From Mobula hypostoma (Eukaryota): a stretch of 64,000 nucleotides of DNA. The notes under the pieces were generated by a model. The model was given only the letters and a program-made list of their open reading frames with translations. It was not told the origin of the DNA and searched no databases. The stretch spans positions 2,728,001 through 2,792,000 of the forward strand of contig NC_086097.1 of assembly GCF_963921235.1 (NCBI RefSeq), given 5' to 3'. A program made the translations under genes and the position numbers. The stretch's first letter is position 1; every line of letters starts with the position of its first letter. Of this stretch, positions 10,381 through 62,200 are shown piece after piece.

Positions 10381-10411
10381 CAACAATTGAACCCACTTCC
10401 ACTCGCAGCAT

Positions 10412-10543
10412 AAACAACAGGAATTCTGCAGATGCTGGAAATTCAAGCAACACACATAAAAGTTGCTGGTGAATGCAGCAGGCCAGGCAGCATCTCTAGG
10501 AAGAGGTGCAGTCGACGTTTCAGGCCGAGACCCTTCGTCAGGA
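10412..10543 (-). mobile_element. Penelope-like 3' terminal fragment (single arm) with hammerhead motif
   Basis: Matches the terminus of the RT/GIY-YIG copy ending at 40246. The 13-bp TSD CCACTCGCAGCAT is at 10399-10411 and 10544-10556. Confidence 0.85.
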
Positions 10544-10635
10544 CCACTCGCAGCATGTTCTGCATCTTCTCCTCAGATGAGGAGGAAGTTCTTTCACCAG
10601 AGGGTGGTAAATCTGTGGAATTCATTGCCACAGAC

Positions 10636-12590
10636 TAACACTCCTCACTTGCCTCGCACAACTGGGGAAATAATTTTTAATGAATTGCCACAGTTCTTTC
10701 AGAAGAATGGCTTGGATGTGAGCAAAATTGTGTCCGTTGTCACCGATGGGGCTCCATCGATGGTGGGACAACACAAAGGCTTGGTAAGCAGATTTGCTGC
10801 TGCTAACCCAGCACTCTTGGCATTTCCATAAGACCACAAGACAAAGGAGCAGAGGTCAGCCATTCAGCACATCGAGTCTGCTCCACCATTTTATCATGAA
10901 CTGATCCATTCTCCCATTTAGTCCCACTCCCCTGCCTTTTCACCATAACCTTTGATAGGTATCTGAGTAGCCAGGGCATCAATCTCTGCCTTAAGTACAC
11001 CCAATGACTTGGCCTCCACTGCCGCGCGTGGCAACAAATTCCATAGATTCACCATTTCATAGATCTCATTGCATTATTCACAAATCAGTGTTGTGCGCTA
11101 AACTGTTGGGAAATGAAAGAGGCAATGGATACTGTGACAAGACTGCTAAATGTCGTTCGTGAGAGCTGTAGTCTGCATCATCGCTTTTTCAGAGCATTGC
11201 TGGAGGAAATGTCAGCGGAACACAAAGATCTTTTCCTGCATAACATTGGCTAAGCAAAGGCCGTGTGTTGGAGAGGGTGTGCGACCTGTGCAATGAGCTT
11301 GTGTCATTTTTATCCAGCCTGCAGAGCCAAAAAACCCAAGGATTTAAGAGGTTTTTAAACTGACAACAAGGTGATGGCACATGTCTTTTTTTTGTCTGAC
11401 ATCATGTCTCATCTAAATCAACTTAATCTGCAATTACAAGGCAACAACCACACTGTTGCGGACATGTACGAGGTGACTGAAGCTTTCCGGTCAAAGCTGA
11501 ACCTTTTGGAGAGAGATATTCACGGGAGAAAGTTGCACTTTCCACGTCTGCGGGAGCATTACAAGAAGAACGAAATGCTGGAGGATCCAGTGATGAAGGA
11601 TTTCGTGACGAGGCTGGCAGAAAACATCAGGGAATGATTTGAAAGCTCCCCTAAACTCTCATGTGACATCCTCCTCTTCCTGAGACAGCCGTTCTCCATT
11701 TCAGCTGACAGCCAGTGGACTGCAGAGGCCAAAAGGCTGGTACCTTCCATAGATGAGGCAACTCTTCAGATGGAGGTCTTGGAAATGGGAACATCTGATT
11801 TGCTCAAAGCACAACACAAGGACGTTGGGGTGAGTGACTTTTGGATCAACGTGGTTCCCCAAGCTCAATTCAAAAACAAGAGAGCTACTGCATGCTCCTA
11901 CTCACACCGTTCCCCTCCACGTACATATGTGAGTCATCGTTTTCTTCAATGAACTCTGTCAAGAACCAGGACAGAAACAGACTCTCCCATGCACATCTTG
12001 GCCAGTGCCTCGGGATTGCCACAACAGAATACAGGCCCGACATCAAAATGGTTGCCTCATCCCGTCACTGTCACTTCTCTCACTGATTGGTGAGTGAATC
12101 AATTTATTTTTGTCCATTTGTCAATCTTATTGTGGTATAATAATATGACAACAATAATACTGATAATTTCATTTATAGCTACACTTCATATGCTATATAG
12201 CTTAATTAAAAAGAAATGGATTAAAGACTACAAGAGAGAGAGCGAGAGCAAGAAAGTGTACATGCGCGTGTATTTTAAGTCCCAGATGAGTTCTCAATGT
12301 GACATCTGACAGTTGTGACAGCTAGAGTCATAATTAAATAGTTGGTTTTGGACTTATTTTGTTTCAAGAGTGCATTTTTTTTTCTTGTGTGACCCAAAAC
12401 ACAGGCTTTGAGAATCCTAGGCCTAAATTATTACTACTACCACTAATAATAATAATGGTATAGCAGCAACAACAACATCTGCCCATAAAACTTACTGGCG
12501 CAATGAAAAAAAAACCCTGGACGTTCTGGCCCTTGGCTTGGCATGCTTGACATAATTTGGCCCTTGTGGAAAACTAATTGGGGAATCCTG
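10636..12590 (+). mobile_element. Decayed hAT DNA transposon (Charlie/SPIN/GTF2IRD2-like transposase), 5' truncated; CR1 tail inserted at ~10828-11060
   Basis: TTGEIIF...VTDGAPSMVG, FLSDIMSHLNQLNLQLQG and STYICESSFSSMN (dimerisation domain) occur in several frames. A TIR-like end ...TTGGGGAATCCTG is at 12590. Confidence 0.85.
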
Positions 12591-12594
12591 CTGT

Positions 12595-13076: not shown

Positions 13077-14330
13077 ATAACCAAACCCCTCAGAATGCCT
13101 TCCAATAACTCTTCCACAGCTGATGTCAGACTCACCGGCCTATAATTTCCTTGTTTATATTCAGAGCCTTTTTTAAACAGTGGAACAACAACTTTGGCTG
13201 TCCTCCAATCCTCTAGTACCTCTCCTATCACCAAGGATGATTTAAATATCTCTGCCAGCACTTGCCTCTCGTAGGGTCCGAGGAAACACCTTGACAGGCC
13301 CTGGGGACTTATCCACCCTGATTTGCCCTTGGACTTCGGCCACATTCCACCAAGATTCAACACCGGGCGGCATGGGAGGTCGTTCCTGCCTGTGGCCATC
13401 GAACTTGCAGCTCCTCCCGTGGCGGGTCAGACACCCTGAGCCAATAGGCTGGTCCTGGACTTTTTTCCATCTGGCATAGTTTGCATTTTGTTGTTTGATC
13501 GTTTGTGGTTTTTGTATTGCTATATTTATGCTCTATTCTTGGTTGGTGCAGCTGCAACGAAACCCAATTTCCCTCAGGATCAATAAAGTACATCTATCTC
13601 AGAACAGCAAATACCTCCTTCTACGTAATCTGTACAGAATTCATGAAGTTCATACTGCTTTGCCTTACTTCTATAGACTCTGTATCCATCTCCCAAGTAA
13701 TTACAGATGCAAGAAATTCACTTATCATTTCCCCCATCTCTTTTGGCTCCACACAACGATTTCCATTCTGATCTTCTAGAGGACCAATTTTGTCCCTTGC
13801 AATCCTTTTGCCCTTAACAAATCTGTAGAATCCCTCGGGATTCTCTTTGACCTTGCCTGCTAGGGGAACCTCATGCCTTTTTTTAGCCCTCAGGATTTCT
13901 TTAAGCATTCTCTTGCATTTCTTATATTTTATACGTACCTAATTTGTTCCTACCCACCTGTACCTGCTCTTAAATCTACCCTTCAAACCTACTCCTCAGC
14001 GTTTTTTCTGTAGTCCTGCCGAACGGTTTCGCCTGAAACTTTGACTGTACTATTTTCCCAGACGCTACCTGGCCTGCTGAATTTGTCCAGCATTTTGTTT
14101 GCATGTTGTATCTGCTCTGCATCTTTTTTCTTAACTTGAGCCCTCAATATCTCTTGAAAACCAAGGTTCCCTGCACCTGTTATCTTTACCTTTTATTCTG
14201 ACAGGCAAGCTTTGTACTCTGAAAATTTCACTTTTGAAGGCCTCTCACTTACCAAGGACACCTTTGCCAGAAAACAGCCTGCCCCAGTTCACAAGTGCCA
14301 GATCATTTCTGACACCATCAAAATTGGCCA
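13077..14330 (-). mobile_element. CR1 fragment with nested Rex1-type tail (~13345-13600) and decayed Penelope terminus (~13975-14100)
   Basis: NYRPVSLTS and RAKKRHE motifs. The Rex tail matches 2930-3130. A decayed hammerhead-like stretch GTCCTGCCGAACGG...GAAACTTTGAC is present. Confidence 0.7.
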
Positions 14331-15792: not shown

Positions 15793-17016
15793 CTCAAACA
15801 AGAGGAAATCTGCAGATGCTGGAAAACCGAACAAGACAAAATGCTGGAGGAACTCAGCAGGCCAGGCAGCATTTCATGGAAAAGAGTACAGTCGACATTT
15901 TGGACCGAAACACTTCGGCGGGACAGGAGAAAAAAAAAGCTGAGGAGCAGATTGAAAAGATGGTGGAGGGGAGAGAGAAACACAAGGTGATTGGTGAAAT
16001 CAGGAAGGGGAGGAATGAAGTAAAGAGCAGGGAAGTTGATTGGTGAAAGAGACAGAAGGCCATAAAAGAAAGAAAGGGGGGGTAATGGGTGGGCAAGGAG
16101 ATGGGAAATAGTGTAGGAGCGGGGGTAGAGCGCATTACTGGAAGCTAGAGAATTCTATGTTCATGCCATCAGGTTGGAGGCTACCCAAATGGAATGCCCA
16201 AGGTGCTGTTCCTCCAACCCAAGTATGTCTTCTTCATGAAAGTGGAGGAGGCCGTGGATGGACATATCAGAATGGGAAGTGGAATTAAAATGGATGGCAA
16301 CTGGGAAATCCCATTTTTACCTGCCCCTGCACCATTCAGGGCCCTAAACAATCATTCCAAGTGAGGCGACACTTCACCTGTGAGTCTATTGGGCTCATAT
16401 ACTGAGTCTGAGCTCCCGGTGTGACCTCCTATCTATCAGTGAGACCTGACGTAGATTGAGAGGCAGCTTCGCTGAGCACCTACACTCTGTCAGTCAGAAG
16501 AAGCAGGATCTCCCAGTAGCCATCCATTTTAATTCCATTTCCCATTCCGATAGATATGTCAATCCATGGCTGCCTCCAGTCATGATGAGGTCACACTCAG
16601 ATTGGAGGAACAACACCTTATAATCCATCCGGGCAGCCTCCAACCTGATGGCATGAACATCGATTTCTCTAAATTCTGGTAATACCCTCAACCCCTCTCC
16701 TTCACCATTTCCCTCCCTCACCTCATCTCCTTGCCTGCTCATCGCCTCCCTCTGGGTGCTCCTCCCCCTTTGCTTTCTTCGATGGTGTTCTGTCTCTTTC
16801 AGCAATCAACCTCCCAGCTCATTACTTCATCCCTCCCCCTCCAGGTTTCACCAATCACCTTGTGTTTCTCTTCCCTCTCCCCTCCTCCATCTTTTAAATC
16901 TATTCCTCAGCTTTTGTTCCCCCAGTCCTGCCGAAGGGTCTCGGCCCGAAACATCGACTGTTTACTCTTTTCCATAGATGCTGCCTGGCCTGCTGAGTAC
17001 CTCCAGCATTTTGTGT
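15793..17016. mobile_element. Older Penelope-like fold-back insertion (left arm minus, right arm plus, junction ~16320)
   Basis: GIY-YIG C-terminus and 3' UTR occur in inverted orientation. The 12-bp TSD TCCTCATAACAG is at 15781-15792 and 17017-17028. Confidence 0.8.
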
Positions 17017-18505: not shown

Positions 18506-18843
18506 AGTTTAGCTCGGAAGAAGAATGCAATTACACTGACAAGAATCTGATTCAGATTACACTGACAGAAGAACAAGATACTCTATGAATTGTGTACAGC
18601 TTTCATTGCAGTGTTGGAAGCCAGCTATATTTCATTAGGAGTTTGACTCGGTATGTCAAAGATCAGAACAAATTTCTACAGATGTACTGATATGCTTGTA
18701 AAGAGATGTGCAGCACCAATGATATTAAACCCAATTCGGATTCTGGGGTTGTAGATGAAAAGAGGAAGCAGGAAGCAATCTTTCAAATGGTAAAATTAAC
18801 TGATGTTGATAGTAGTATGGGCCAAACTCAAACAGACAATCAA

Positions 18844-19058
18844 ATACACACAAATTGCTAGAGGAGCTCAGCAGGCCAGGCAGCATCTACGTAAAAGAGT
18901 ACTGTTGATGTTTCAGGCCGAGTCCTGGTGAAGTGTCTCGGCTCGAAATATCAACTCTACTCTTTTCTATCGATGCTGCCTGGCCTACTGAGTTCCTCCA
19001 GCAATTTGTGTGTGTTGCTTGGATTTCCAGCATCTGCAGATTTTCTCTTGTTTGTGAT
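18844..19058. mobile_element. Short decayed Penelope fold-back
   Basis: Inverted terminal arms with imperfect TSD CAGACAATCAA (18833-18843) / CAGACAAACAA (19059-19069). Confidence 0.7.
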
Positions 19059-19869: not shown

Positions 19870-20640
19870 GTCGACGTTGAACTCTTACATAAAAAAGTGA
19901 CTGCATTGAGGAAACGCCGGCGCCACTATATAAACTAGCATCAGTTGGGAAGAGGAGACGTGGGAAGGCGAAGGTCTCCCTCCCCACCTCCGTCTCAGCG
20001 GAATTAAGACGGGCGCCACGAACTCTCAGAGGCAACTGGGGGCCGGGGCCGTGCGCGGAGAGGGCCCGGGCGAACACCCCCACCCCCTGCAGCCTGGTTC
20101 GGGGGTGTGGGCCCGGTGGGTCGCCCCTCCTCGACAGCCTGGGCCCAAGCCCCCTCTGTAGCCTGGACTGTCCTCCCCGAAACTTTCCCCCACCCACCCC
20201 CAGCGCCTGTAGCCACTCACCGCTCCTTCCAAAGGCAAGTTTCCCCGGGTTTAGTCCGAGCACTCCAGAGCCGGCCTCAGCCCGGTCCCGGTCCGGCTCC
20301 ATCCCTCCCCTGTACCAATTAATCCTCAGTAACTCATCGCCGCACAGAGCAGACCGTCTCCTGCTGCCCCACCGCCCTCCAAGCCTCTTCCCCATTGAAC
20401 GCCGAGCAGCCAATCAGCGGCGGCATTGCTGAGGGAGGGGGCGGCTCCGACCTGCGCCGAGTCTCCAGCCCCCGTGGGCTCGGATTTAAAAGCCGGTGCC
20501 ACGGATTCCTGCAGCTTAGCAACCCCGGCCGAGCAGAGCAGAAAATAAAACGGCTTGGCTTCTCACTGGTGCAGGGATCATTGTGCGAGGTTAACTATTG
20601 TCCAAAGTTCAAAGTAAATTTATTATCCAAGTACATGCGG
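19870..20640. promoter_or_regulatory. CpG island / probable promoter
   Basis: The only long GC- and CpG-rich stretch not explained by repeats. Contains CAGCCAATCAG (CCAAT box, ~20408), GGGGGCGG (GC box, ~20437) and ATTTAAAA (~20484). Confidence 0.75.
20221..20390 (-). other. Candidate first exon of an unidentified minus-strand transcript
   Basis: Strong donor GCG|GTGAGT at 20221/20220 inside the CpG island. ATG in GGGATGG context at 20302 (MEPDRDRAEAGSGVLGLNPGKLAFGRS). The 5' boundary is a guess. Confidence 0.45.
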
Positions 20641-20661
20641 GTCGCAGTATACAACCTTGTG

Positions 20662-20835
20662 CAACACACGTCAAAGTTGCTGGTGAACGCAGCAGGCCAG
20701 GCAGCATCTATAGGAAGAGGTACAGTCAACGTTTCAGGCCGAGACCCTTCGTCAGGACTAACGTTCACCAGCAACTTTGATGTGTGTTGCTTGAATTTCC
20801 AGCATCTGCAGAATTCCTGTTGTTTGCGTTTTTAA
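20662..20835. mobile_element. 174-bp Penelope fold-back
   Basis: Inverted termini with the 13-bp TSD ATACAACCTTGTG at 20649-20661 and 20836-20848. Confidence 0.85.
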
Positions 20836-21824
20836 ATACAACCTTGTGATTCATTTTCTTGCGGGCAATAACAATAAATCCAAGAATCAATGAAAGCCTG
20901 CACCCAGCAGGACGGACAAACAATCTATGAATTGTACAAATACAGATAGGAATAATAATAATAAATAAGCAATATATATTGCTTCTGGTTCAAGAACCTG
21001 ATGTTTGAAGGGCAGTAACTGGTCCTAAACCTGGTGGCTCCTGTACCTCCTACCTGGTGGCAGCAGTGAGGAGAGTCTGGCCTAGATGGTGGGGTCCATG
21101 AATCGGGATGCTGCTCTCTTGTGACAGCACTCCGTGTAGATGTGCTCAATGGTTAGTGTGGTTAGAAATGATTAATTAATCCCAAATTAATGAGCCCTCA
21201 GTAGAGATAAAAAGATCTGTTTACTGATGGAGTACAGTGCTGGTAGATTCTAATTGGATTATAGATGATCTGTTTCACTACATTTTGCTACAGAAGTTCA
21301 GTTGAAAGTAGAAATGGAGCTGATACAATTGAAACAACAAACAAAAAGCTGGAGGAACGCAGCGGGTCATATTTACACTTATTTATTACACGTACATCAT
21401 GATATGCAGTGTAATATGCTGTTCACATTGACACCCAGGGATATGCTGGGGGCAGTCTGCACACACATTCCGATGCCAACATAGAATGGCCACAATGTTC
21501 AGCACAACAACACACAGTGCAGAACATACAAGCAGCAACATCGACACACTGTTTCCCACACACACAATCAACCCTGGGAACAGGCTGCCTCGCGTCCTTG
21601 GGTCTCCTACCAGACTTGACCTTCCGGTCTCTACCTCCAGACTCGTGACTTCAATCTTCGACCTTTCTGGCTTTCTACCACCGGCTCACTGAGTTTTGGA
21701 CTTTGACTTTCGGCTTTGACCTCTGAACTTTGCCAGCCTCTGGGTATTGACCCTAGGGCTTTCTGATCATGGGTTTGACCTTTGGACCTTGATCCCAGGA
21801 CACGCCAATCACGCATTTAACCTT

Positions 21825-22360: not shown

Positions 22361-23634
22361 GCTCAATGGAACCAGCCTCCGGGATTGTTGATTTACAACC
22401 ACAGAGTGCCTGGGTCAGACTGCATCTGTGGAGGGAACTGTAGAGTCATCGTTTCGACGCAGATTTTTCACCTGGACTCCTCTGGCACTTTACAACCAGG
22501 TGGAATGAACACTGACTTTGTGTTCTTTCCTCTCCTCCATCACATGAACAGAAAGTAGTTTGATGGACTCATGAACACACACAAAGTGCAGCAACTCAGT
22601 GGGTCAGGCAGCATCTATGGAAAGGAATGATCAGTCGATATTTGGGCCAAGACCCTTCATCAGGATTGGATAGGAGGGGAGAGGAAGGGCTCATTGTTGT
22701 GTGTGTTTTTTTTAACAACATGATCTTCCTTGAGCTATGATATCCTTATTTGTCTTGTAGACATTAGGCAGGTGTTCTTCCCACTTTAAATAAATTTATA
22801 ATTTACACTATACATATTTAACTCCAACTTACAACATTAAATACACCCTATATTTCATTTAGAGTTTGAAGAGGTTTGGTATGTCACCAAAGATACTGAC
22901 AAATCAAATTTCTACAGATGTACCATGGAGAGCATTCTAACTGGTCACAGCACCAACTGGTATGGACGGGCTACTGTACAGGATTGAAATAAGCTGCAGA
23001 GAGTTGTAAACTCAGTCAGCTCCATCATGGGCACTAGCCTCCGTAGTATCCAGAAAATTTTCAAGGTGCGATGCTTCAAAAAGGCAGCATCCATCATTCA
23101 GGAACCCCCTCACCCAGGCCATGCCAGGTTCTCATTGCTACCATCAAAGAGCAGGTAAATACTCCTGAAGCCTCACACTCAATGATCCAGGAACAGCTCC
23201 TTCCCCTCTGCCACTTTATTTCTGAATGGGCATTGAACCCATGAACACTACCTCACTACACTTCTATTTCTATTTTTACACTACTTCAGTGCCTACAAAA
23301 AGCATTCACCCCCTTGGAAGTTTTTATCTTTTATTGTTTTACAACATTGAATCACAGTGGATTTAATTGGGCTGTTTTGACACTGATCAACAGAAAAGGA
23401 CACTTATGTGTCAAAGTGAAAACAGATCTCTACAAAGTGATCTAAATTAATTACAAATATAAAACACAAAATAATTGATTGCATAAGTATTCACCCCCTT
23501 TAAAATGATGCACCAAATCATCACTGGTGCAGCCAATTGGTTTTAGAAGTCACATAATTAGTTAAACGGAGATCACCATGAAGTCAATGCGTTTCAATTG
23601 ATCGTAGTAAAATCTGGAAGGTTTAACTGCTGAT

Positions 23635-26842: not shown

Positions 26843-28540
26843 TGACTAAACACATTGATGAAGGTGGAGCAGTAGATGTCGTGTAAATGGATTTCAGCAA
26901 GGCATTTGATAAGGTACCCCATGCAAGGCTTATTGAGAAAGTAAGGAGGCATGGGATCCAAGGGGACTTGCTTTGTGGATCCAGAATTGGCTTGCCCACA
27001 GAAGGCAGAGTGGTTGTAGACGGGTCATATTCTGCATGGAGGTCGGTGACCAGTGGTGTGCCTTGGGGATCTGTTCTATGACCCCAACTCTTTGTGATTT
27101 TTATAAATGACCTGGATGAAGTGGAGGGATGAGTTAGTAAATTTGCTGATGACACAAAGGTTGGAGGTGTTGTGGATAGTGCGGAGGGCAGTCAGAGGTT
27201 ACAGCGGGACATTGATGGGATACAAAAATGGACTGAGAAGTGGCAGATGGAGTTCAACCCAGATAAGTGTGAGGTGGTTCATTTTGGTAGGTCAAATATG
27301 ATGGCAAAATTTAGTATTTATGGTAAGACTCTTGGCAATGTGGAGGATCAGAGGGATCTTGGGGTCCATGTCCATAGGACACTCAAAGCTGCTGTGCAGG
27401 TTGACTCTGTGGTTAAGAAGGCATACGGTGAATTGGCCTTCATCAATCGTGGGATTGATTTTAGGAGCTGAGAGGTAATGTTGCAGCTATATAGGACCCT
27501 GGTCAGACCCCGGTGCTCACTTCTGGTTGCCTCACTACAGGAAGGATGTGGAAACCATAGAAAGGGTGCAGAGGAGATTTACAAGGATGTTGCCTGGATT
27601 GGAGATCATGCTTTAGGAGAATAGGTTGAGTGAACTTGGCCTTTTCTCCTTGGAGCGACAGAGGATGAGAGGTGACCTGATAGAGATGTACAAGATGATG
27701 AGATACATTGATTGTGTGGATAGTCAGAGGTTTTCCCAGGGCTGAAATGGCTAGTGCGAGAGGGCACAGTTTTAAGGTGCTTGGAAGGAGGTACAGAGGA
27801 GATGTCAGGGGTAAGTTTTTTAACACAGAGAGTGCTGAGTGCGTGGAATGGACTGCTGGTGGCGGTGGTGGAGGTGGATATGATAGGGTCTTTTAAGAGA
27901 CTCCTGGACAGTTACGAGGGGTGATTGATAAGTTTGTGGCCTAAGGTAGAAGGAGTCAATTTTACCAAACCTAGCACATTTATTTTTCAACATAGTCCCC
28001 TCCTACATGTACACACTTAGTCCAGTGGTCGTGGAGCATACGGATCCCTTCTTTGTAGAAGTGGTCCACGGCAGGGGTGATTGATAAGTTTGTGGCCTAA
28101 GTAGAAGGAGATGAGTTATACAGCTCTCGTTATGTGCACATGCAGTTCAACTCTCTGAGTGAAAATGCAGAAACTTTGAAGTTAATAACTCATCTCCTTC
28201 TACCCTAGGCCACAAACTTATCAATCACCCCTGCTGTGGACCACTTTCTGGAGGTCCAAGACGCTGACTTCTACAAAGAAGGGATCCATATGCTCCACAA
28301 CTGCTGGACTAAATGTGTAAATGTAGGAAAAACAAATGTGCTAGGTTTTCTAAAATTGACTCCTTGTACTGTACCTTAGGCCACGAACTTATCAATCACC
28401 CCTTGTCTATGGAGCTCATAAAAATAGAGGGTTATGGGTAACCCTCAGTAATTTCTCAGGTAAGGACATGTTTGGCACAGCTTTGTGGGCTGAAGGGCCT
28501 GTATTGTGTAGGTTTTCTCTGTTTCTATGTTTCTCTATGT
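26843..28540 (+). mobile_element. 5'-truncated CR1 LINE inserted in Tc1
   Basis: MDFSKAFDKVPH and KWQMEFN motifs, with a (TTTCTATG)n-like tail. Confidence 0.9.
27915..28405. mobile_element. Palindromic mariner-derived MITE
   Basis: TA followed by CGAGGGGTGATTGATAAGTTTGTGGCCTAAGG, with an inverted copy at the right end. The arms include a mariner transposase C-terminus (DFYKEGI...WTKCVNV). Confidence 0.8.
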
Positions 28541-28813
28541 TTCTAATTATGTAATCAATTATTTTGAGTTTAATAATTGCAATAAAGTTAGAACAATTTG
28601 TAGAAATTTCTTTGCACTTTGACACAAAAGATTATTTTCTGTTGGTCAGTGTATACTTCCTGTAATTCAGTTTTTTCAATTATTATATAATTTCATTGTA
28701 CTGCTGCCACAGAGACAACCAATTGCACAACATATGCCAGTGATATTAAAGCAACACACATCAAAGTTGCTGGTGAATGCAGCAGGCCAGGCAGCATCTG
28801 TAGGAAGAGGTGC

Positions 28814-28849
28814 AGTCGACGTTTCAGGCCGAGACCCTTCGTCAGGACT
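28814..28849 (-). ncRNA. Minimal type I hammerhead ribozyme motif
   Basis: Minus strand reads AGTC-CTGACGA-AGGGTCTCGGCCT-GAAA-CGTC-GACT. Confidence 0.75.
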
Positions 28850-29532
28850 AACTGAAGGAAGAGTGAGTAAGGGATTTGAAAGTTGGAGGGGGAGGGGGAG
28901 ATCCAAAATGATAGAAGACAGGAGGGGGAGGGATAGAGCCGAGAGCTGGACAGGTGATAGGCAAAAGGGGATACGAGAGGATCATGGGACAGGAGGTCCG
29001 GGAAGAAAGACAAGGGGGGGGGGGACTCAGAGGATGGGCAAGAGGTATATTTAGAGGGACAGAGGGAGAAAAAGGAGAGTGAGGGAAAGAATGTGTGCAT
29101 AAAAATAAGTAACAGATGGGGTACGAGGGGGAGGTGGGGCCTTAGCGGAAGTTAGAGAAGTCGATGTTCATGCCATCAGATTGGAAGCTACCCAGACGGA
29201 ATATAAGGTGTTGTTCCTCCAACCTGAGTGTGGCTTCATCTTTACAGTAGAGGAGGCTGTGGATGGACATATCAGCATGGGAATGGGATGTGGAATCATT
29301 CTTTCTCTCACTCTCCTTTTTCTCCCTCTGAATATACCTCTTGCCCATCCTCTGGGTCCCCCCCCCTTGTCTTTCTTCCCGGACCTCCTGTCCCATGATC
29401 CTCTCATATCCCTTTTGCCTATCACCTGTCCAGCTCTCGGCTCTATCCCTCCCCCTCCTGTCTTCTCCTATCATTTTGGATCTCCCCCTCCCCCTCCAAC
29501 TTTCAAATCCCTTACTCACTCTTCCTTCAGTT

Positions 29533-29568
29533 AGTCCTGACGAAGGGTCTCGGCCTGAAACGTCGACT
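29533..29568 (+). ncRNA. Minimal type I hammerhead ribozyme motif
   Basis: Stem I AGTC/GACT, core CTGACGA, stem II hairpin, GAAA and palindromic ACGT stem III. Predicted GUC cleavage after 29564. Confidence 0.75.
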
Positions 29569-30497
29569 GTACCTCTTCCTAGAGATGCTGCTTGGCCTGC
29601 TGCATTCACCAGCAACTTTGATGTATGTTGCTTGAATTTCCAGCATCTGCAGAATTCCTGTTGTTTCCAGTGATATTAAACCTATTTCTGATTCAAATTC
29701 AAAGTATATTTATTCTCGAAGAACATATAAATTATACAAGTTTAAATTTGTTTACAGCTGTTGCAAAGCAAGGAACCCAAAAGAACTCAATTAAAAAAGT
29801 AAAGACCAACACTCAATGCACACAGAGAAAGAGGAAAGAAAACCAAAACAAGCAAACAACAGAAGCTAGTAACAACAGCAGTATTGCAAAGCAAACTGAG
29901 TCCTTGGATCCAAATTCCTGGAGCAGCCTGGAGTCGGGTTCAGTATTCAGTTCATCGTATCAGTGGGGTAAGTTGTCTCAAAGCTCACAGACGTGAAGCC
30001 ATTCTCAACCTCTTCAAATCAGCTCGGTGCCCGGAGTGATCTTCCCTTGCCCGACTCTCGACACCCTGTCTTTCCAGTCTATCTGGGCTGGTGTTTAGAT
30101 TGTCAGACAGTGGGTTGTAGCTCGCATTAGGGCCTGGGATCTGCCGCAGTGAATCACTGTGGGCCTAGGACAAGCTGCACAACAATTTGCTCAGCTAATT
30201 CTGATTCTCCTTGTTCAATAACATTTACAGTCATCATTACGATATAATCAATCAGTGTATAATTTATTTTCTCAAAGTATACATGTTGGTTCAGGGTCTC
30301 TTTTGCCAAGATGAGGTCTCTCTCAGGGTGCAGGAGCAACACCTCCTATTCTATCTAGATAACCTCCAATTGAAGGCATGAACATTGATTTCGCCAGCTT
30401 CTGGTAGTTTTTCCCCTCCTCCCTCTCCTCTTCTTCAATTCCCCACTCTGACCTATTCCTCTTCTCCTCATCTCCCTATCGCCACCCTCAGGGTCCC

Positions 30498-36264: not shown

Positions 36265-36805
36265 TAAGACTTGGCCTCCACAGCTGCCTGTGGCAAAGAA
36301 TTCCACAGATCCACCATTCTCTGACTAAAGAAATTCCTCCTCATTTCCGTTCTAAAAGGACACCCCTCTATTCTGAAGCTGGGTCCTCTGGTCTTAGGCT
36401 CTCCCACCATCGGAAACATTTTCTCCACATCCACTCTATCAAGAACTTTCACCATTCGATAGATTTTAATGAGGTCGACCCTCATTCTTCTGAATTCCAG
36501 TGAATACTGGCTCAGAGGCTCTCTAATGCTCTTCATATGACACACCATTCAATCCTGGAATCATTTTTGTGAACCTTCTTTGAACCCTCCCCAGTTTCAG
36601 CACATCCTTTCTAAGACAAGGTGCCCAAACTTGCTCACAATACTCCAAGTAAGGCCACACCAGTGCTTTATAAAGTTTCAACATTAAATCCTTGCTTTTT
36701 ATATTCTTGTCCTCTTGAAAAGAATGCTAACATTGCATTTGGCTTCCTCACCACAGATTCAACCTACAAGTTAACCTTTAGGGAATCCTATGCAAGGATT
36801 CCCAA

Positions 36806-38395
36806 CAACATACATCAAAGTTGCTGGTGAATGCAGCAGGCCAGGCAGCATCTATAGGAAGAGGTGCAGTCGACGTTTCAGGCCGAGACCCTTCGTCAGG
36901 ACTAACTGAAGGAAGAGTGAGTAAGGGATTTGAAAGCTGGAGGGGGAGGGGGAGATGCAAAATGATAGGAGAAGACAGGAGGGGGAGGGATGGAGCCAAG
37001 AGCTGGACAGGTGATAGGCAAAAGGGGATACGAGAGGATCACGGGACAGGAGGTCCGGGAAGAAAGACAAGGGGGGGGTGACCCAGAGGGTGGGCAAGAG
37101 GTATATTCAGAGGGACAGAGGGAGAAAAAGGAGAGTGAGAGAAAGAATGTGTGCATAAAAATGAGTAACAGATGGGGTACAAGGGGGAGGTGGGGCCTTA
37201 GCGGAAGTTAGAGAAGTCGATGTTCATGCCATCAGGTTGGAGGCTACCCAGACGGAATATAAGGTGTTGTTCCTCCAACCTGAGTGTGGCTTCACCTTTA
37301 CAGTAGAGGAGGCCGTGGATAGACATGTCAGAATGGGAATGGGATGTGGAATTAAAATGTGTGGCCACTGGGAGATCCTGCTTTCTCTGGCGGACAGAGC
37401 GTAGATGTTCAGCAAAGCGGTCTCCCAGTCTGCGTCGGGTCTCACCAATATATAAAAGGCCACATCGGGAGCACCGGACGCAGTATATCACCCCAGTCGA
37501 CTCACAGGTGAAGTGATGCCTCACCTGGAAGGACTGTTTGGGGCCCTGAATGGTGGTAAGGGAGGAAGTGTAAGGGCATGTGTAGCACTTGTTCCGCTTA
37601 CACGGATAAGTGCCAAGAGGGAGATCAGCGGGGAGGGATGGGGGGGACGAATGGAGAAGGGAGTTGTGTAGGGATCGATCCCTGCGGAATGCAGAGGGGG
37701 AGGGAGGGAAAGATGTGCTTAGTGGTGGGATCCCGTTGGAGGTGGCGGAAGTTATGGAGAATAATATGTTGGACCCGGAGGCTGGTGGGGTGGTAGGTGA
37801 GGACCAGGGGAACCCTATTCCTAGTGGGGTGGTGGGAGGATGGAGTGAGAGCAGATGTACGTGAAATGGGGGAGATGCGTTTAAGAGCAGAGTTGATAGT
37901 GGAGGAAGGGAAGCCCCTTTCTTTAAAAAAGGAAGACATCTCCCTTGTCCTAGAATGAAAAGTCTCATCCTGAGAGCAGATGCGGCGGAGACGGAGGAAT
38001 TGCGAGAAGGGGATGGCGTTTTTGCAAGAGACAGGGTGAGAAGAGGAATAGTCCAGATAGCTGTGAGAGTCAGTAGGCTTATAGTAGACATCAGTGGATA
38101 AGCTGTCTCCAGAGATAGAGACAGAAAGATCTAGAAAGGGGAGGGAGGTGTCGGAAATGGACCAGGCAAACTTGAGGGCAGGGTGAAAGTTGGAGGCAAA
38201 GTTAATAAAGTCAACGAGTTCTGCATGCGTGCAGGAAGCAGTGCCAATGCAGTCGTCGATGTAGCGAAGGAAAAGTGGGGGACAGATACCAGAATAGGCA
38301 CGGAACATAGATTGTTCCACAAACCCAACAAAAAGGCAGGCATAGCTAGGACCCATATGTGTGCCCATAGCTACACCTTTAGTTTGGAGGAAGTG
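36806..38395 (-). mobile_element. Penelope-like (Neptune-type) element, 5'-truncated: RT (MGTHMGPSYA, RYIDD), thumb and GIY-YIG, one frameshift near 37700
   Basis: ORFs 37625-38368 and 37198-38091 include CKRNKCYTC and VIYCVRCSRCGLLYIGET...RFAEH. Confidence 0.92.
36868..36903 (-). ncRNA. Minimal type I hammerhead ribozyme motif
   Basis: Intact AGTC-CTGACGA...GAAACGTC-GACT on the minus strand. Confidence 0.75.
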
Positions 38396-38783
38396 TTATG
38401 TGTCATTTAAATGTCGTGTTCAGTATTTGACATAGCTGCATCGGTATGTTGAGACCAGGTTAGATCCTCAGAGATCTTGACACCCAGGAACTATAAACTG
38501 CTCACTCTCTCCACTTCTGATCCCTCCATAAAGATTGGTTCGTGTTACCTCGTCTTACCCTTCCTGAACTCCACATCCAACTCTTCCGTCTTACAGACAT
38601 TGAGTGGAAGGTCGTTGCTGTGACACCGCTTAACTAGCTGCTATATTTCATTTCTTCTTCATCTGAGATTCTACCAACAAAGGTTGTACCATCAACAAAC
38701 TTACAGGTATCATTTGAGTTATACTGAGCCACACAGTCATGAGTACAGAGGAGTAGAGCAGGTAAAATTACCTCCTATAACAA
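38396..38783 (-). repeat. Old, decayed Rex1-type LINE RT fragment lying between the Penelope arms
   Basis: Minus strand resembles the LLYSL.T.DCVA...KFVD.T...ELDVEFRK...LGV.ISEDL region also seen in young Rex copies at 45200-45520. Confidence 0.6.
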
Positions 38784-40246
38784 CCTGCACGCATGCAGAG
38801 CTCGTTGACTTTATTAACTTTGCCTCCAACTTTCACCCTGCCCTCAAGTTTACCTGGTCCATTTCCGACACCTCCCTTCCCTTTCTAGATCTTTCTGTCT
38901 CTGTCTCTGGAGACAGTTTATCTACTGATGTCTACTATAAGCCTACTGACTCTCACAGCTATCTGGACTATTCCTCTTTTCACCCTGTCTCTTGCAAAAA
39001 TGCCATCCCCTTCTCGCAATTCCTCTGTCTCCGCCGCATCTGCTCTCAGGATGAGGCTTTTCATTCTAGGACGAGGGAGATGTCTTCCGTTTTTAAAGAA
39101 AGGGGCTTCCCTTCCTCCACTATAAACTCTGCTCTTAAACACATCTCCCCCATTTCACGTACATCTGCTCTCACTCCATCCTCCCACCACCCCACTAGGA
39201 ATAGGGTTCCCCTGGTCCTCACCTACCACCCCACCAGCCTCCGGGTCCAACATATTATTCTCCGTAACTTCCGCCACCTCCAACGGGATCCCACCACTAA
39301 GCACATCTTTCCCTCCCCCCCCCCTGCATTCCGCAGGGATCGCTCCCTACACAACTCCCTTGTCCATTCGTCCCCCCCATCCTTCCCCGCTGATCTCCCT
39401 CCTGGCACTTATCTGTGTAAGCGGAACAAGTGCTACACATGCCCTTACACTTCCTCCCTTACCACCATTCAGGGCCCCAAACAGTCCTTCCAGGTGAGGC
39501 ATCACTTCACCTGTGAGTCGACTGGGGTGATATACTGCGTCCGGTGCTCCCGATGTGGCCTTTTATATATTGGTGAGACCCAACGCAGACTGGGAGACCG
39601 CTTTGCTGAACATCTACGCTCTGTCCGCCAGAGAAAGCAGGATCTCCCAGTGGCCACACATTTTAATTCCACATCCCATTCCCATTCTGACATGTCTGTC
39701 CACAGCCTCCTCTACTGTGGAGATGAAGCCACACTCAGGTTGGAGGAACAACACCTTATGTTCCGTCTGGGTAGCCTCCAACCTGATGGCATGAACATCG
39801 ACTTCTCTAACTTCCGCTAAGGCCCCACCTCCCCCTCGTACCCCATCTGTTACTCATTTTTATGCACACATTCTTTCTCTCACTCTCCTTTTTCTCCCTC
39901 TGTCCCTCTGAATATACCTCTTGCCCATCCTCTGGGTCACCCCCCCCCGTCTTTCTTCCCGGACCTCCTGTCCCATGATCCTCTCGTATCCCCTTTTGCC
40001 TATCACCTGTCCAGCTCTCGGCTCCATCCCTCCCCCTCCTGTCTTCTCCTATCATTTTGGATCTCCCCCTCCCCCTCCAACTTTCAAATCCCTTACTCAC
40101 TCTTCCTTCAGTTAGTCCTGACGAAGGGTCTCGGCCTGAAACGTCAACTGCGCCTCTTCCTAGAGATGCTGCCTAGCCTGCTGCGTTCACCAGCAACTTT
40201 GATGTATGTTGCTTGAATTTCCAGCATCTGCAGAATTCCTGTTGTT
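38784..40246 (+). mobile_element. Penelope-like (Neptune-type) element, 5'-truncated, open frame to the stop at 39820; 3' UTR with hammerhead at 40114-40149
   Basis: ORF 38684-39820 (its first ~33 codons come from filler DNA) has LPFLDL, YYKPTD and GIY-YIG motifs. Confidence 0.92.
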
Positions 40247-40364
40247 CAAGGATTGCCAAGTCTCTTTCCATCTCAGTTTTTTGTATTTTCTCTCCATTTA
40301 GAAAATGGTCAACCCATTTATTTCTTCATCTGAAGTGCATGACCATACACTTCCCAACACTGCA

Positions 40365-48168: not shown

Positions 48169-48169
48169 A

Positions 48170-49520
48170 ACATAGAAAACCTACAGCACAATACAGGCCC
48201 TTCAGCCCACAAAGCTGTGCCGAACATGTCCTTACCTGAGAAATTACCTAGGGTTAGCCATAGCCCTCTATTTTTCTAAGCTCCATGTACCTATCCAGCA
48301 GTCTCTTAAAAGACCCTATCGTATCTGCCTCTACCACCGTTGCCGGCAGCCAATTCCACGCACTCACCACTCTCTGCATAATAAACGTATCCCTGACATC
48401 TCCACAACACGCTGGAGGAACTCAGCAGGTCGGGCAGCATCCGTAGAAATGAACAGTCGATGTTTCGGGCCGAGGCCCTTCATCCTGAATGTCCCGCTGT
48501 AACCTCTGACAGCCCTCCGCACTATCCACAACACCTCCAATCTTTGTATCATGAGCAAATTTATGAACCCATCCCTCCACTTCTTCATCCAGGTCATTTA
48601 TAAAAATCATGAAGAGTAGGGGTCCCAGAAGAGATCCCTGAGGCACACCACTGGTCACCGACCTCCATGCAGAATATGATCCATCTACAACCACTCTTTG
48701 CCTTCTGTGGGCAAGCCAGATCTGGATCCACAAAGCAATGCCCCCTTGGATCCTATGCCTCCTTACTTTCTCAATAAGCCTTGCATGGAGTACCTTATCA
48801 AGTGCCTTGCTGAAATCCATATACACTACACCTACTCCTCTAACTAATGGTAAGGCAGGAGGAGAAGATGGCAGCATGCCTGCGCGTGCGCAGCCCCCCG
48901 GTGAAAAATGATATCGTATCTGTTAAATAGGGGCCGTGGACAATTCTGATTTGATAGAGAATGGGCGTGAAAGCACAGAGGAACATCTGGAGAAATTTCT
49001 GAAATGCCCGTTCGCTGCTGTCGTTACTGCGTGGTCAGGAATCTTTCGGAGGGTAGGCCTCAAAATCCCCGGCCTTGCCTGCTCTTGGCGACCGAGAAGG
49101 AGATCGAATCTTTCAGACAGAGATGGCGCTCAGTACTCGGTGTCGGAGAGCTGATCAGAGCTCGAAGTTTTCAGATGACTCAGAGTCGGACCGTAGTCGG
49201 GTATGGCAGGGAGAGTTTTTCTTCCTTCTCCCGTCTGCGTGAGATGTGGGACATTTGAGAGACTTTGAACTTTACTGTGCTCATGGACTTCTTCATCAAG
49301 TTATGGTATCGTTGCACTGTTTGTAACTATATGTTATAATTATGTGGTTTTGTCAGTTTTTTCAGTCTTGGTTTGTCCTGTGTTTTGTGATATCACACCG
49401 GAGGAAATAATGTATCATTTCTTAATGCATGCATTACTAAATAACAATAAAAGAGGACTACGTGTCTTCATAATCTAACATCATCAATGTGTTTAGTCAC
49501 ATCCTCAAAGTTGGGAAACT
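48170..49520 (-). mobile_element. CR1 fragment nested in Gypsy; contains a Penelope terminus (~48403-48487) and a CpG-rich retroposon (~48845-49477)
   Basis: MDFSKALDKV and GVPQGS motifs, with a CR1 tail at 48170. Confidence 0.8.
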
Positions 49521-49589
49521 TTGGAGAGACCCAGTAAGGGAACAACCTGGCATCTTGTGGGGAACATGTTTCAACCAATGTACCAGGGG

Positions 49590-51012: not shown

Positions 51013-52784
51013 GCATTGTTGGCCATAAGAAAGGACAGTCTAATCAAGGACAAGAGAAGCAGACAAACCAGTTGTCTTTGTTTCCAGTCACAAACAAGAG
51101 AAAATCTGCAGATGCTGGAAACCTGAGCAACACACACAAAATGCTGGAGGAACTCAGCAGGCCAGGCAGCATCTATGGAAAAGAGCACAGTCGATGTTTT
51201 GGGCAGAAACGTTTCAGCAAGTCCATCCACTTTGTGAACTTTGAACCAATTCTGGTTCTTGGATAATCTAATCAGAGCAATTGAATGTGGATACAAGTAG
51301 GTTTAGGTGATGACCTGCTAAACCTGAGACCATTCTTGGACAAGTAGTTATTTGTTATGTAAAGAGCATGGACTCTGAACCGATTCTTGCTCTGGGATAA
51401 TCTAATCAGAGCAATTGAATGTGGACACAAACAGCTTCAGGTAATGGCCTGCTGAACTTGCTAAATTCTCAGATAAATAGCTACTTATTATGTAAAATGC
51501 CAGACCTACCAAAGAAACAATCTGTAATCTTATTAGACTCTGTCTGGGTCTATCCACACAAGCAAAGCCTCTCATCATTTTATACACATCTATCAGGTCA
51601 CCTCTCATCCTCCCTCGCTCCAAAGAGAAAAACCCAAGGACACTCAACCTATTCTCACAATGTACACCCGCCAATCCAGGCAACATCCTTGTGAATCTCC
51701 CCTGCATTTTCTCTATTGTATTCACATTCTTCCTGTGGTGAGGTGACCAGAACTGAGCACAGTACTCCAAGTGTAACATTACCTCATAGCTCTTGAACTC
51801 TATCCCATGGTTGATAAATGCCAACACACCATACGCCTTCTTAACAACATTGTCAACCTGCGCAGCAGCTTTGAGTGTCCTATGGACACGGACCCCAAGA
51901 TCTTGCTGCTCCTTCACACTGCCAAGAGCTTTACCATTAATATTATGTTCTGTCTTCAAATTTGACGTACAGAAACGAACCACTTCACACTTATCTTGGT
52001 TGAACTCTATCCACCACTTCTCAGCCCAGTTCTGCATCCTATCAATGTCCCGTTGTAACCACTGACAGCCCTCCAGACTATCCACAACACCCCCAACTTT
52101 TGTGTCATCAGCAAACTTACTAACCCACCCTTCTACATCTTCATGCTGGTCATTTATAAAAATCACAAAGAGAAGGGGTCCCAGAATAGATCCCTGCGGA
52201 GCACTGTCCTCCATGCAGAATATGAACCATCCATCAACAGCATTTGTCTTCTGTGGGCAAGCCAATTCTAGATCCACAAAGCAAGGTATCCTTGGATCCC
52301 ATGCCTCATTTCTTTCTGAATGAGCCTAGCATGGGGAACCTTATCAAGTGCCTTATTGGAATCCATATACACTACATCTACTGCTCTACCTTCATCAATG
52401 TGTTTTGTTACATCCTCAAAGAATTAAATCAGGTTCGTTAGGCATGACCTGCCCTTGACAAAGCCATGCTGACTGTCCCTAATCAGATTATGTCTCTCCA
52501 AATGCTCATAAATCCTGCCTCTCAGGATCTTCTTCAATGATTTGCCCCACCACTGAAGTAAGGCTCACCGGTCTATAATTTCCTGGGTTACCTCTACTCC
52601 CTTTTTTGATCAAGGGAACAATGTTTGCAACCCTCCAATCCTCTGGAACTTCTCCCATCCCTATTAATGATGCAAAGATCACTGCCAGAGACTCAGCAAT
52701 TTCTTCCCTTGCTTCCCACAGTAGCCTGGGGTATATCTTGTCCGGTCCCAGTGACATATCTAACTTAATTCTTTTCAAAAGCTC

Positions 52785-55380: not shown

Positions 55381-55393
55381 CTTTGTAGCACAT

Positions 55394-55587
55394 AACAGGA
55401 ATTCTGCAGATGCTGGAAATTCAAGCAACACACATAAAAGTTGCTGGTGAACGCAGCAGGCCAGGCTCTCGGCCTGCTGGCTGTATCTCAGGGGTGCTGG
55501 CTGGGTCTCGGCCTGAAACGTCGACTGCACCTCTTCCTAGAGATGTTGCCTGGCCTGCTGCATTCACCAGCAACTTTTATGTGTGTT
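55394..55587. mobile_element. Short Penelope fold-back with patchwork junction
   Basis: 13-bp TSD CTTTGTAGCACAT at 55381-55393 and 55588-55600. Confidence 0.85.
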
Positions 55588-59213: not shown

Positions 59214-59396
59214 TTGCCCCTTCTCTACTTTTCTTTAATTCTTTGCAGTGCCCTGCTCCCGACACTGACTGGTCCTATGGAATGTCCGGACACATACTAA
59301 GCTCTTGTTTTATATAAGCTTTGCCAACCTGCGAGTAAATTCTTTGAAGTGCAGAACGTCAAATTTTGCAAGGTGTCAGTTAACTATGTTGGGCAC

Positions 59397-60210
59397 CACA
59401 CACAAAAAAAATGCTGGTGAACGCAGCAGGTCAGGCAGCATCTACAGGAAGAGGTACAGTCAAAGTTTCGGGCCGAGAAGTGAGTTGGCTACACTTCACC
59501 TGTGAGTCAGCAGGGGTGATATACTGCGTCCGGTGCTCCCGACGTGGCCTTCTATATATTGATGAGACCCGACGCAGATTGGGAGACCGCTTTGCTGAAC
59601 ACCTACGCTCTGTCCACCAGAGAAAGCAGGATCTCCCAGTGGCCACACATTTTAATTCCACGCCCCATTCCCATTCTGACATGTCTATCCATGGCCTCTA
59701 CTGTCAAGATAAAGCCACACTCAGGTTGGAGGAACAACACCTTATATTCCGTCTGGGTAGCCTCCAACCTGATGGCATGAATATTGACTTCTCTAACTTC
59801 CGCTAATGCCCCAATTCCCCCTCATACCCCATCCGTTATTTATTTAATATATTTTTTATTTTTCCCCCTTTTTTTCTCTTTTCTCCCTCTGTCCCTCTCA
59901 CTATAACTCCTTGCCTCCCTTCCCCCCTTCTCTTTCTCCCCAGGTTTCCCATCCCATGATCCTCTCCCTTCTCCAACTCTTGGCTCCATCCCTCCCCCTC
60001 CTGTCTTCTCCTATCATTTTGGATCTCCCCCTCCCCCTCCCCCTTTCAAATCTCTTATTAGCTCTTCTTTCAGTTAATCCTGACGAAGGGTCTCGGCCCG
60101 AAACGTCGACTGTACCTCTTCCTATAGATGCTGCCTGGCCTGCTGCGTTCACCAGCATTTTTTTTTGTGTGTGTTGCTTGAATTTCCAGCATCCGCAGAT
60201 TTCCTCGTGT
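59397..60210. mobile_element. Penelope fold-back (short minus arm, plus arm with GIY-YIG; hammerhead at 60076-60111) inserted in Gypsy RT
   Basis: 13-bp TSD CTATGTTGGGCAC at 59384-59396 and 60211-60223. Confidence 0.88.
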
Positions 60211-62200
60211 CTATGTTGGGCACATAGTCTCACGGGATGGAGTAGCTATTGATCCATCCAAGATAGAGGTGGTGATCACATGGTCAAGGCCTTACACTCG
60301 TTCCTTGGATTCTGTGGGTACTAGCAGAGGTTTGTGAAGGATTTCTCTAATGAGTCACCCTTTGAATCAGCTTCTCCGTGGTTACCCACCCTTGGGGAAG
60401 AAAGGGAGGAGGACAAAAGGAGAAGGAGGTAAATCTTATCTTAGCCCTTTTGAGCCTTTCGGGGAAAGATGGAATGCAAAATGTGAAGAGACCTTTCAGC
60501 TGCTTTCTAAAGCAGCTGTGTTGGCCTTTGCAAACCCCCAGTTTCTACTGCATGCCGATGCTAGCCATGACGATACAGGGGGTGTTCTATATCAGGGACA
60601 TGGCAAAGGCTTTAGACCTGTTACTTTCATCAGCTGGAGTCCGTCACCCTCCGAGCAAACTTTCTCCATGCGCAAATTGGAGTTTCTGGCATTGAAATGG
60701 GCTGTGGCGGGTAAGTTTAGTGACTATCTGGTGTCAAGTTCAAGGTGAGGACTGACAACAATCCACTGACTTATATCTTGACCTTCTCGAATTTGGATGC
60801 CGCAGGTCAGTGTTGGCTGGTGATGATTGCAGCTTGAATTATCTGCCGGGGAGCCAGAACATTGATGTGGATGTGCTGTCCTGACATTCGCATGAGGTGC
60901 TGGAAATGGACGGAGAATGGCGGAGTGCTGCTGCCTCTGGTGTTAAAGCAATGTGCCAGCTTTCCACCATGGCTGTGGAAGATAGAGCTGTGGATTATCT
61001 GGGAGCTTCTGGTTGCACCATTCCACAAGCTTAATGCAACTTGACATCTCTGGATGTGAAGCAGTTACCTGCCTTGAGTCCTGCGGAACTGGCAGCAGCA
61101 CAACGAGCCAATGTTTGTATAGGTGCCATTTGGTCATCTGTTGCAAAGGGGGATATGGCCGAGTTGAAAAGATGAAACACCCTACCATACCCCTACTGAT
61201 GAGAGAATGTAGCAGACTGGAGTTGAGGAACCAGGTTCTGTACAAGGTCACATCTCCTTCAGACAGGCCTCAGCATTCCCAGTTGGTTTTGTCTGAGAAA
61301 CATCAGAGGATTGTGTTGAAGTCACTTCATGATGATTCAGGTCACTTGGGGTTTGACAAGACCTATGGATTGGTCTGAGATTGGTTCTACTGGTTCTTCC
61401 AGGGTGATCCCCAGTCTAAAAGATTCAACTGGACACTGTTAGACATGCTTTGAACCCTGGAGATCAGCAAGAAGAGCAAATGGAGTCAGCATATTGGGCA
61501 TTTGGCACACTGCTACAACTGTACACCGAATGAAGCTACCGGATACCCGCTATACTATTTGATGTTCGGGTATGGAGTGAGATTGCCTGTAGATCTCTGT
61601 ATTGGGACTGGCGGTGAAGGCTTCCCACAGAAGACCTATCTTAAGTATGTGTCTGACATGTGGAAAGAAATGGAGAAGACTTATGAGCAAGCAGCGGCGT
61701 CTGCTGCCAAGCAAAGTCAATGAAACCAGAGGAAATATGATCGAAAGATTAGGTTCTCTCAACTGATGCCTGGAGAGAGAGTTTTAATAAGGAATTTGGG
61801 GCCACCAGGGAAGCATAAGTTGTCTGACCACAGGATGTCTATGCCTTATGTCGTGGACAGCCAGATGCCGAATATGCCAGTTTTCTGGCTGAAGCCAGAA
61901 GATGGGAATGGCCCCGTCAAAATTCTCCATCAGAATCACCTGCTACCCCGAGGGCATGAGGTACATGTTGACTCAGAACCTGACATGGAACATACACTTT
62001 TTAGGAGAACTCTGCATAGAAGAACAAGAACAAGAAAGGCAATCAGGGCCCCAACACTGAATGCTGTGTGGACTCAGAGGATGAGGAAACAGGGATGTGA
62101 TATACATTACCCTCTGCAAACTCCCCAAGCATTGATGAAGAGATTCCTGACTCTCCGGATCCGGACTCAGATGTAAAGGGGCATAGGGAGGGGTGGGGGG
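60211..62200 (+). pseudogene. Gypsy RT C-terminus, RNase H and partially deleted integrase
   Basis: YVGHIVS, FLLHADAS...GGVLYQ...KLEFLALKWAV, LHDDSGHLG, YNCTPNEATGY...LMFG and PGERVLIRN. Confidence 0.85.

Follow-up and report, generated by a model that had tools for sequence, protein, structure and literature searches.

How does a retroelement come to lie in a genome with its 3' end facing outward on both sides? The question is posed by a 64,000-nt stretch of the Mobula hypostoma genome (contig NC_086097.1, positions 2,728,001 to 2,792,000), referred to here as the window and numbered from its first letter, in which an initial annotation had described seven such insertions of a ribozyme-bearing Penelope family. 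The family from which they derive is a young, endonuclease-bearing (EN+) Penelope-like element (PLE) with a unit of approximately 3.5 kb. We propose, with a probability of about 65%, that these fold-backs are dead-on-arrival insertion products of this element, each made of two cDNAs that were primed from two staggered nicks and joined head to head.

Fold-back insertions in the window

The window was searched with an inverted-repeat scan and with BLAST, using the long arm of a 3.4-kb copy as query. Both methods recovered the seven fold-backs of the initial annotation as paired arms whose 3' ends face outward. The 19-nt terminus, CTGCAGAATTCCTGTTGTT, occurs eight times in the window at ≤3 mismatches, against a chance expectation of 0.02. 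One arm of each pair reaches this terminus, ending in ...CCTGTTGTT and lying 0-6 nt short of it in the BLAST alignment; the other arm falls 25-51 nt short there, and inspection by eye places its end at a CAACA[C/T]AC tract about 35 nt earlier. These last 35 nt are referred to as the tail, and the arms as tailed or tail-less. The asymmetry that had been claimed, with one arm carrying the full terminus and the other stopping some 35 nt before it, was thus found in all seven. The arms overlap in element coordinates, so that the same sequence is duplicated, and each fold-back is enclosed by a single direct repeat, read from the flanks as a target site duplication (TSD) of 11, 12, 13 (four times) or 14 bp, in agreement with the 11-14 bp reported before.

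The 3.4-kb fold-back (36806-40246) consists of a tail-less arm at 36806..38395 (-) bearing coding sequence for a probable reverse transcriptase (RT, with YIDD) and for GIY-YIG, 388 nt of non-PLE filler at 38396..38783, and a tailed arm at 38784..40246 (+), in which the open reading frame (ORF) ends at 39820, a minimal hammerhead-like motif lies at 40118-40145 and the tail occupies 40212-40246. Its TSD, CAAGGATT[C/G]CCAA (13 bp, 1 mismatch), reads CAAGGATTCCCAA on the left (36793-36805) and CAAGGATTGCCAA on the right (40247-40259). The filler is a piece of an old interspersed repeat of another kind, with matches at 67-84% identity in the fetched loci L027, L045, L042, and L040, and looks like the capture of an unrelated old repeat during insertion.

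Four of the other fold-backs have the tail-less arm on the left. The one at 28751..29665 joins a tail-less arm (28751-29296, -) directly to a tailed arm (29297-29665, +) within the TSD CCAGTGATATTAAA (14 bp, at 28737 and 29667). At 20662..20824 is a 163-nt fold-back whose tail-less arm (-) extends to 20762 and whose tailed arm (+) spans 20762-20824, followed by the read-through bases TGCGTTTTTAA (20825-20835) and enclosed by ATACAACCTTGTG (13 bp, at 20649 and 20836). A small old fold-back at 18844..19052, with a tail-less arm (-) and then a tailed arm (+), carries 6 extra bases past the terminus within CAGACAA[T/A]CAA (11 bp, 1 mismatch, at 18833 and 19059). A copy of a diverged subfamily at 59397..60210 likewise begins with its tail-less arm (59397-59478, -), which is followed by a tailed arm (59487-60210, +), and has the TSD CTATGTTGGGCAC (13 bp, at 59384 and 60211). 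The order is reversed in an older-subfamily copy at 15797..17016, with a tailed arm at 15797-16311 (-), a tail-less arm at 16330-17016 (+), 4 extra bases at 15793-15796 and the TSD TCCTCATAACAG (12 bp, at 15781 and 17017), and in a 194-nt copy at 55394..55587, where a tailed arm (55394-55466, -) and a tail-less arm (55503-55587, +) are separated by a 36-nt gap within CTTTGTAGCACAT (13 bp, at 55381 and 55588).

Fold-backs were said to make up 7 of 8 TSD-flanked copies in the window; our tally of all copies gives seven among 11-12. A simple 5'-truncated tailed copy of 132 nt lies at 10413..10544 (-) with the TSD CACTCGCAGCAT (12 bp, 10400-10411 and 10545-10556). An old simple tailed copy at 51093..51215 (-) is without a clear TSD, and two old solitary tail-less copies are found at 22574..22689 (-), without a partner arm and with a weak TSD, G[A/G]CTCAT, and at 48392..48484 (-). 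The old copy at 13975-14132 is an uncertain member of the set. Neither it nor the two solitary tail-less copies had been named in the initial annotation.

The source element and its internal terminus

In a related copy, a 708-aa open frame has a Pfam match to RVT_1 (E 1.8e-4; 21.8 bits, under the cut-off of 29.6), followed by one to GIY-YIG (E 6.7e-4). GIY-YIG was detected in three independent copies, always C-terminally (E 4e-4 to 1e-3; 19.8-20.9 bits, cut-off 22.6). It is present in both arms of the 3.4-kb fold-back, where the GIY-YIG motif can also be read in the translation together with a polymerase motif of the YIDD type. A probe made from the last 147 nt has approximately 1,800 candidate matches in the 3.48-Gb genome.

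The locus L042 places the terminus within the unit. There ...CCTGTTGTT closes a 693-nt partial copy, and the sequence continues unbroken into TGCGTTTAAATTC..., with an ATG about 37 nt further on that begins an open frame; the remainder of the unit resumes after approximately 950 nt. The arrangement is a partial tandem, with a pseudo-long terminal repeat (pLTR), of a unit of about 3.5 kb. Because the sequence of L042 runs on past it, the "terminus" is an internal point of the template. The bases found beyond it in daughter copies (T, TG, TGC, TGCGTTT..) are mostly prefixes of the read-through in this tandem.

About 100 nt upstream of the terminus, eight arms in the window carry CTGACGA-A-GGGTCTCGGCC[T/C]-GAAAC-GTC. 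PMC4209133 describes the minimal hammerhead of PLEs as having an extra base after position 9, a G10.1 whose partner is U or C, and an ACGU palindrome without loop 3. By our own reading the motif fits this description, and we take it to be a putative ribozyme. A search with Rfam returned no family at gathering score over the window and no hammerhead at E ≤ 10 in 39900-40300. For the tail region, neither an alignment fold, which was without compensatory pairs, nor a single-sequence fold (z = -0.6) supports a structure.

Pairing of ends across the genome

We then examined copies elsewhere in the genome, taking the 40 best-scoring of about 1,800 candidates for each of two probes. The first sample, obtained with a tailed probe, comprised 29 places outside the window, 20 of them inspected over 10 kb and 9 over 3 kb. 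Ten were fold-backs whose tail-less arm extends to the proximal zone, two had a partner arm cut off at the end of the locus, and in two more (L026 and L024) a short inverted piece had an internal start. Simple 5'-truncated copies accounted for 13, the partial tandem of L042 for one, and one place was assigned to no class. An inverted arm is thus present in 14 of 29 tailed copies, and the claim that the fold-back is the usual product of insertion did not survive at this scale. Four more fold-backs, each tailed and tail-less, were met by chance in the fetched loci.

All 21 fold-backs that were resolved at both ends (seven in the window, ten in the first sample and the four chance finds) have one tailed and one tail-less end. 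Eleven of them were not ascertained by the tailed probe, and all 11 are mixed (p ~3e-4 under independent pairing at the observed end frequencies). These frequencies come from the second sample, 40 places found with a probe that ends before the tail and is therefore tail-agnostic, which had 16 tailed versus 24 tail-less ends. The fetched loci include at least one young tail-less copy that stands alone and has a TSD of its own; simple insertions without the tail therefore exist.

The ends are not as sharp as had been supposed. Two fixed start points had been postulated, and we find that the tail-less ends of the second sample are spread over about 13 nt, from ...GATGTG to ...GCTTGA, and that the long end often carries 1-11 additional read-through bases. 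Of 23 insertions that have an inverted segment, 21 have their second end inside a single zone of 13 nt, L026 and L024 being the exceptions. Arm overlap ranges from 29 to 1430 nt. Of the 21 fold-backs, 10 have the longer arm on the tail-less side and 8 on the tailed side, and in 3 the arms are equal to within 3 nt. Inner junctions have an overlap of 0-8 nt or a filler of 3-7 nt, 36 nt, 65 nt (L029, a distant piece of the element) or 388 nt (the other repeat in the 3.4-kb window copy).

Locus L047 (4059-9000) contains a 4.9-kb structure inside a perfect 13-bp TSD (AAGTGTTAGTAAC), with a tail-less arm on one side and a tailed arm on the other. The arms are separated by approximately 2 kb of other material, among it pieces of further PLE subfamilies, and the inner end of one arm has a 79-nt perfect hairpin.

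Relatedness of the two arms

Arms of the same fold-back are 98.3% identical, compared to 97.3% for arms of different loci. At diagnostic sites, 34 of 190 comparisons disagree within a fold-back versus 879 of 2002 between loci, and none of 10000 re-pairings was as concordant. In 5 of 12 fold-backs, 3-8 diagnostic sites nonetheless separate the two arms. The discordant sites number 8 of 21 in the 36806-40246 copy, and 4 of 12 among its non-CpG sites, when 0.35 would be expected (p = 5e-4). A comparison of diagnostic single-nucleotide polymorphisms had been suggested as a means of telling one RNA template from two, and its outcome is divided: the arms of one fold-back usually share a subfamily, and sometimes they differ at diagnostic sites beyond what mutation explains.

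The tailed arm of L047 changes character at sites 947 and 932 nt from the end, where its 3' part has the markers of one subfamily and the sequence upstream those of another. This fits template switching between RNAs.

One further association was pursued and rejected. At a CpG site about 100 nt from the terminus (e.g. 40146, the base after the putative hammerhead cut), the arms differ in five fold-backs, in all five with A on the tailed side and G on the tail-less side. The association was perfect in a first set, in which 11 tailed ends of one lineage had A and 4 tail-less ends had G. Among 18 independent ends, however, A was found in 4 of 14 tail-less and 0 of 4 tailed, and the association is probably due to chance.

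Target site duplications and empty sites

TSDs of insertions with an inverted arm have a median length of 13 bp (range 11-15, n=21) and those of simple copies a median of 10.5 bp (range 6-13, n=16; Mann-Whitney p = 2e-5), lengths that were read by hand, with the longest reading taken where microhomology blurred the boundary. Empty sites were sought at 15300-30300 in contigs from four public sequencing runs, one likely from the source sample and three under another organism label. None was recovered there, as the contigs break at repeats and none spans an insertion at single-copy depth. Contigs at about 100-160 depth join 20636 to 20836 in all four runs. This joint, which is 12 nt off and is not clean evidence, probably represents paralogous copies of the host repeat without the 163-nt fold-back. 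The flanks of that fold-back (20600-20660 and 20836-20900) belong to another repeat family.

A model for insertion

The directly observed anatomy, TSDs, end-point distributions, tandem junction and arm relatedness can be assembled into a single route. The endonuclease would nick the two target strands 13-14 bp apart, and reverse transcription would begin inside a read-through RNA. One start, the distal, would be placed at ...CCTGTTGTT or up to 11 nt beyond it, some 37 nt ahead of the ATG of the ORF; the other would be a proximal zone 29-42 nt upstream of the distal start. In roughly half of events both 3'-OH ends would act as primers, one for each start; the two cDNAs would stop independently, and their head-to-head joining via microhomology or filler would yield a fold-back with a full-length TSD. 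Where one nick alone primes, an ordinary 5'-truncated copy would result; the remaining overhang would have to locate the end of the cDNA, often leaving a shorter TSD. What we infer here is the spacing of the nicks, the priming at both of them in vivo and the sequence of steps. The step to two independently 5'-truncated cDNAs is taken because the arms are unequal, either one may be the longer, their junctions have microhomology or filler, and a single TSD surrounds the whole.

We consider it possible, although somewhat short of even odds, that the fold-backs obey a stricter rule: whenever both nicks prime, each would use a different start, one distal and one proximal, and the stagger of 13-14 bp would be retained in full, with part of it lost in single-primed events. 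Such a fixed geometry might be imposed by a dimeric integration complex that is asymmetric or sits on a single tail hairpin, its two active sites each engaging one start, at least sometimes on two different RNA molecules.

Several points weigh against the two-nick reading. The Pfam scores of the PLE domains all lie under the curated cut-offs, and the genome samples, being the best-scoring places, are not a random census. Hand-read TSD lengths and the empty site that was not recovered count on the same side. In two insertions, L026 and L024, the inverted pieces start internally, 128 and 642 nt from the end, and palindromic junctions in L030, L046, L026 and a piece in L047 fit self-priming as proposed in PMC3846280. 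Start-site choice in vitro was the same on both strands (PMC11167929), which leaves the strict one-of-each pairing unexplained.

Self-priming would take the form of a snap-back, in which the distal-primed cDNA folds and copies itself and the tail-recognising endonuclease of the element resolves the hairpin about 35 nt from its end, so that one arm loses the tail. Arkhipova et al. (2013; PMC3846280) favoured self-priming, Craig et al. (2021) put the tail down to EN-mediated resolution, and a snap-back would suit both the closer similarity of arms within a fold-back and the near-equal or palindromic centres of L030 (966/968), L046 (1898/1900), L026 (168/168), and the perfect hairpin of L047. A copied arm can at most equal its template in length, yet the tail-less arm is often the longer; several fold-backs differ at subfamily-diagnostic sites far beyond the prediction from mutation, and filler, such as the other repeat in the window copy or the distant piece in L029, joins some of the arms. 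Because a copy can neither outgrow its template nor yield arms of different sublineages, self-priming is not the general route, and as an account of the whole set we hold it to be unlikely; it may apply to the few palindromic centres (L030, L046, L026, and the piece in L047). Priming from both staggered nicks, the mechanism put forward in the initial annotation, explains most of the anatomy, and these few centres fit self-priming equally well.

Two further explanations appear very improbable. The inverted termini, TSDs and small size of the short fold-backs recall miniature inverted-repeat transposable elements (MITEs), and one 164-nt copy has 16 other end-to-end matches in the genome, as though such units had been amplified from one founder, either as DNA or as whole fold-back RNAs. 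These 16 matches span 147-176 nt, none of them 164, at 84-96% identity compared to 97-99% for single arms. Because the whole-unit matches vary in length and fall below single-arm identity, their junctions differ and the events were independent. Arm lengths differ in every copy of the window and the fetched loci, and the ends are asymmetric, one being 35 nt shorter; the view that these are retrotransposition products and not MITEs is borne out. It is just as hard to believe that each fold-back is two independent simple insertions lying head to head at the same place. New copies do land in or near existing ones, as overlapping target sites and a nested simple copy in L050 illustrate, but the fold-backs have a single TSD around the whole structure and none around single arms, a tailed end is always paired with a tail-less one, and subfamily variants are common to both arms far above chance.

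In L050, an apparent fold-back with two tails was set aside when it proved to be two simple copies, one inserted into the other and both flanked by TSDs of their own. At 7039-9000 of the same locus, the target sites of a small fold-back of old age and of a young simple insertion overlap (TSDs CAACAGTCACTGTAA and (A)GTCACTGTAAC), which suggests that one site was reused or that insertion occurred beside an existing PLE end.

Two inverted repeats in the window fall outside the family. A hairpin-like element of about 420 bp at 27946-28369, just upstream of the 28751 fold-back, is without a match to the PLE reference and is built of three nested inverted-repeat pairs with arms of 41-62 nt that are 90-98% complementary. 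An 85-nt inverted repeat (3662-3746 and 5026-5110; 98% complementary, arms 1.3 kb apart) is unrelated to PLE.

Novelty and significance

The inverted copy with a one-sided tail is already known, and the dual-priming inference mostly restates published work. In literature searches on PLE twin priming and, from 2024, on PLE target-primed reverse transcription and GIY-YIG, no explicit dual-priming account of PLE inverted repeats was found beyond PMC11167929. The one-of-each pairing was not found in the PLE literature searched, although the supplements of these papers may bear on it, nor were the difference in TSD length that sets fold-backs apart from simple copies and the evidence that some events had two templates. 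That pairing, the TSD contrast and the read-through bases supply quantitative constraints beyond the scope of the biochemical study (PMC11167929). If true, the fixed one-of-each rule would be something that in vitro work did not see, recorded in genomic fossils.

The fold-backs are an in vivo record of PLE integration, of modest value, and a large animal genome preserves thousands of such insertion events. MITE-looking hairpins of this kind should be annotated as truncated PLE insertions.

Comparison with known systems

In L1 twin priming, the 3' end of the second nick primes on the element RNA to give an inverted 5' segment; the two segments are without overlap, and priming takes place at variable internal sites. 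The arms described here, in contrast, both start in the 3'-end region and duplicate the same sequence, a distinction that had been drawn earlier and that the overlap in element coordinates upholds. L026 is the copy that resembles L1 twin priming, with a 5-nt microhomology to an internal site. Retrozymes are direct-repeat units that give circular RNAs. The copies in M. hypostoma resemble metazoan retrozymes and small non-autonomous hammerhead retroelements as short repeats with a (here putative) hammerhead motif that are abundant in animal genomes; unlike retrozymes, they are inverted, truncated ends of an autonomous PLE. MITEs and fold-back DNA transposons have a common internal sequence and junction and equivalent termini, and neither feature is found here.

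The closest known counterparts are EN+ PLE units of the Penelope/Poseidon/Neptune type, such as Pen2a_Av of Adineta vaga. PMC3846280 and PMC8557442 give as a hallmark of PLEs a neighbouring 5'-truncated copy in inverted orientation, with a tail of 30-40 bp at a single end. Arkhipova et al. (2013; PMC3846280) describe a rotifer PLE in which the inverted pLTR falls 37 bp short of the direct pLTRs, one of the inverted pLTRs has a 31-bp tail, and a 9-bp TSD encloses the unit. The M. hypostoma family shares with these units an ORF with RT (probable here) and C-terminal GIY-YIG, partial tandems (here L042), an adjacent inverted 5'-truncated copy, a tail (~31-40 bp in those units) on one inverted end only, a hammerhead motif in the pLTR (putative here), and a TSD that encloses the whole unit. 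It departs from them in that most copies are short truncated arms and not pLTR-ORF-pLTR, and the fold-back TSDs are 13-14 bp, unlike the 8-10 bp reported for A. vaga.

For PAc, a Poseidon element of Anolis carolinensis, Frangieh et al. (2024) used purified protein to show that each of the two strands is cut and extended, and that reverse transcription starts internally at two adjacent sites, alike on both strands, with the tail being the interval between them (PMC11167929). On our model the M. hypostoma element likewise has both target strands cut and extended and two nearby internal starts that delimit the tail, and it has a putative hammerhead about 70-100 nt upstream of them, as in PAc (PMC11167929). 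Its starts, however, lie about 37-72 nt before the ATG, compared to 111-118 nt inside the ORF in PAc, and whereas PAc showed no strand preference for either start in vitro (PMC11167929), the genomic fold-backs always have one of each.

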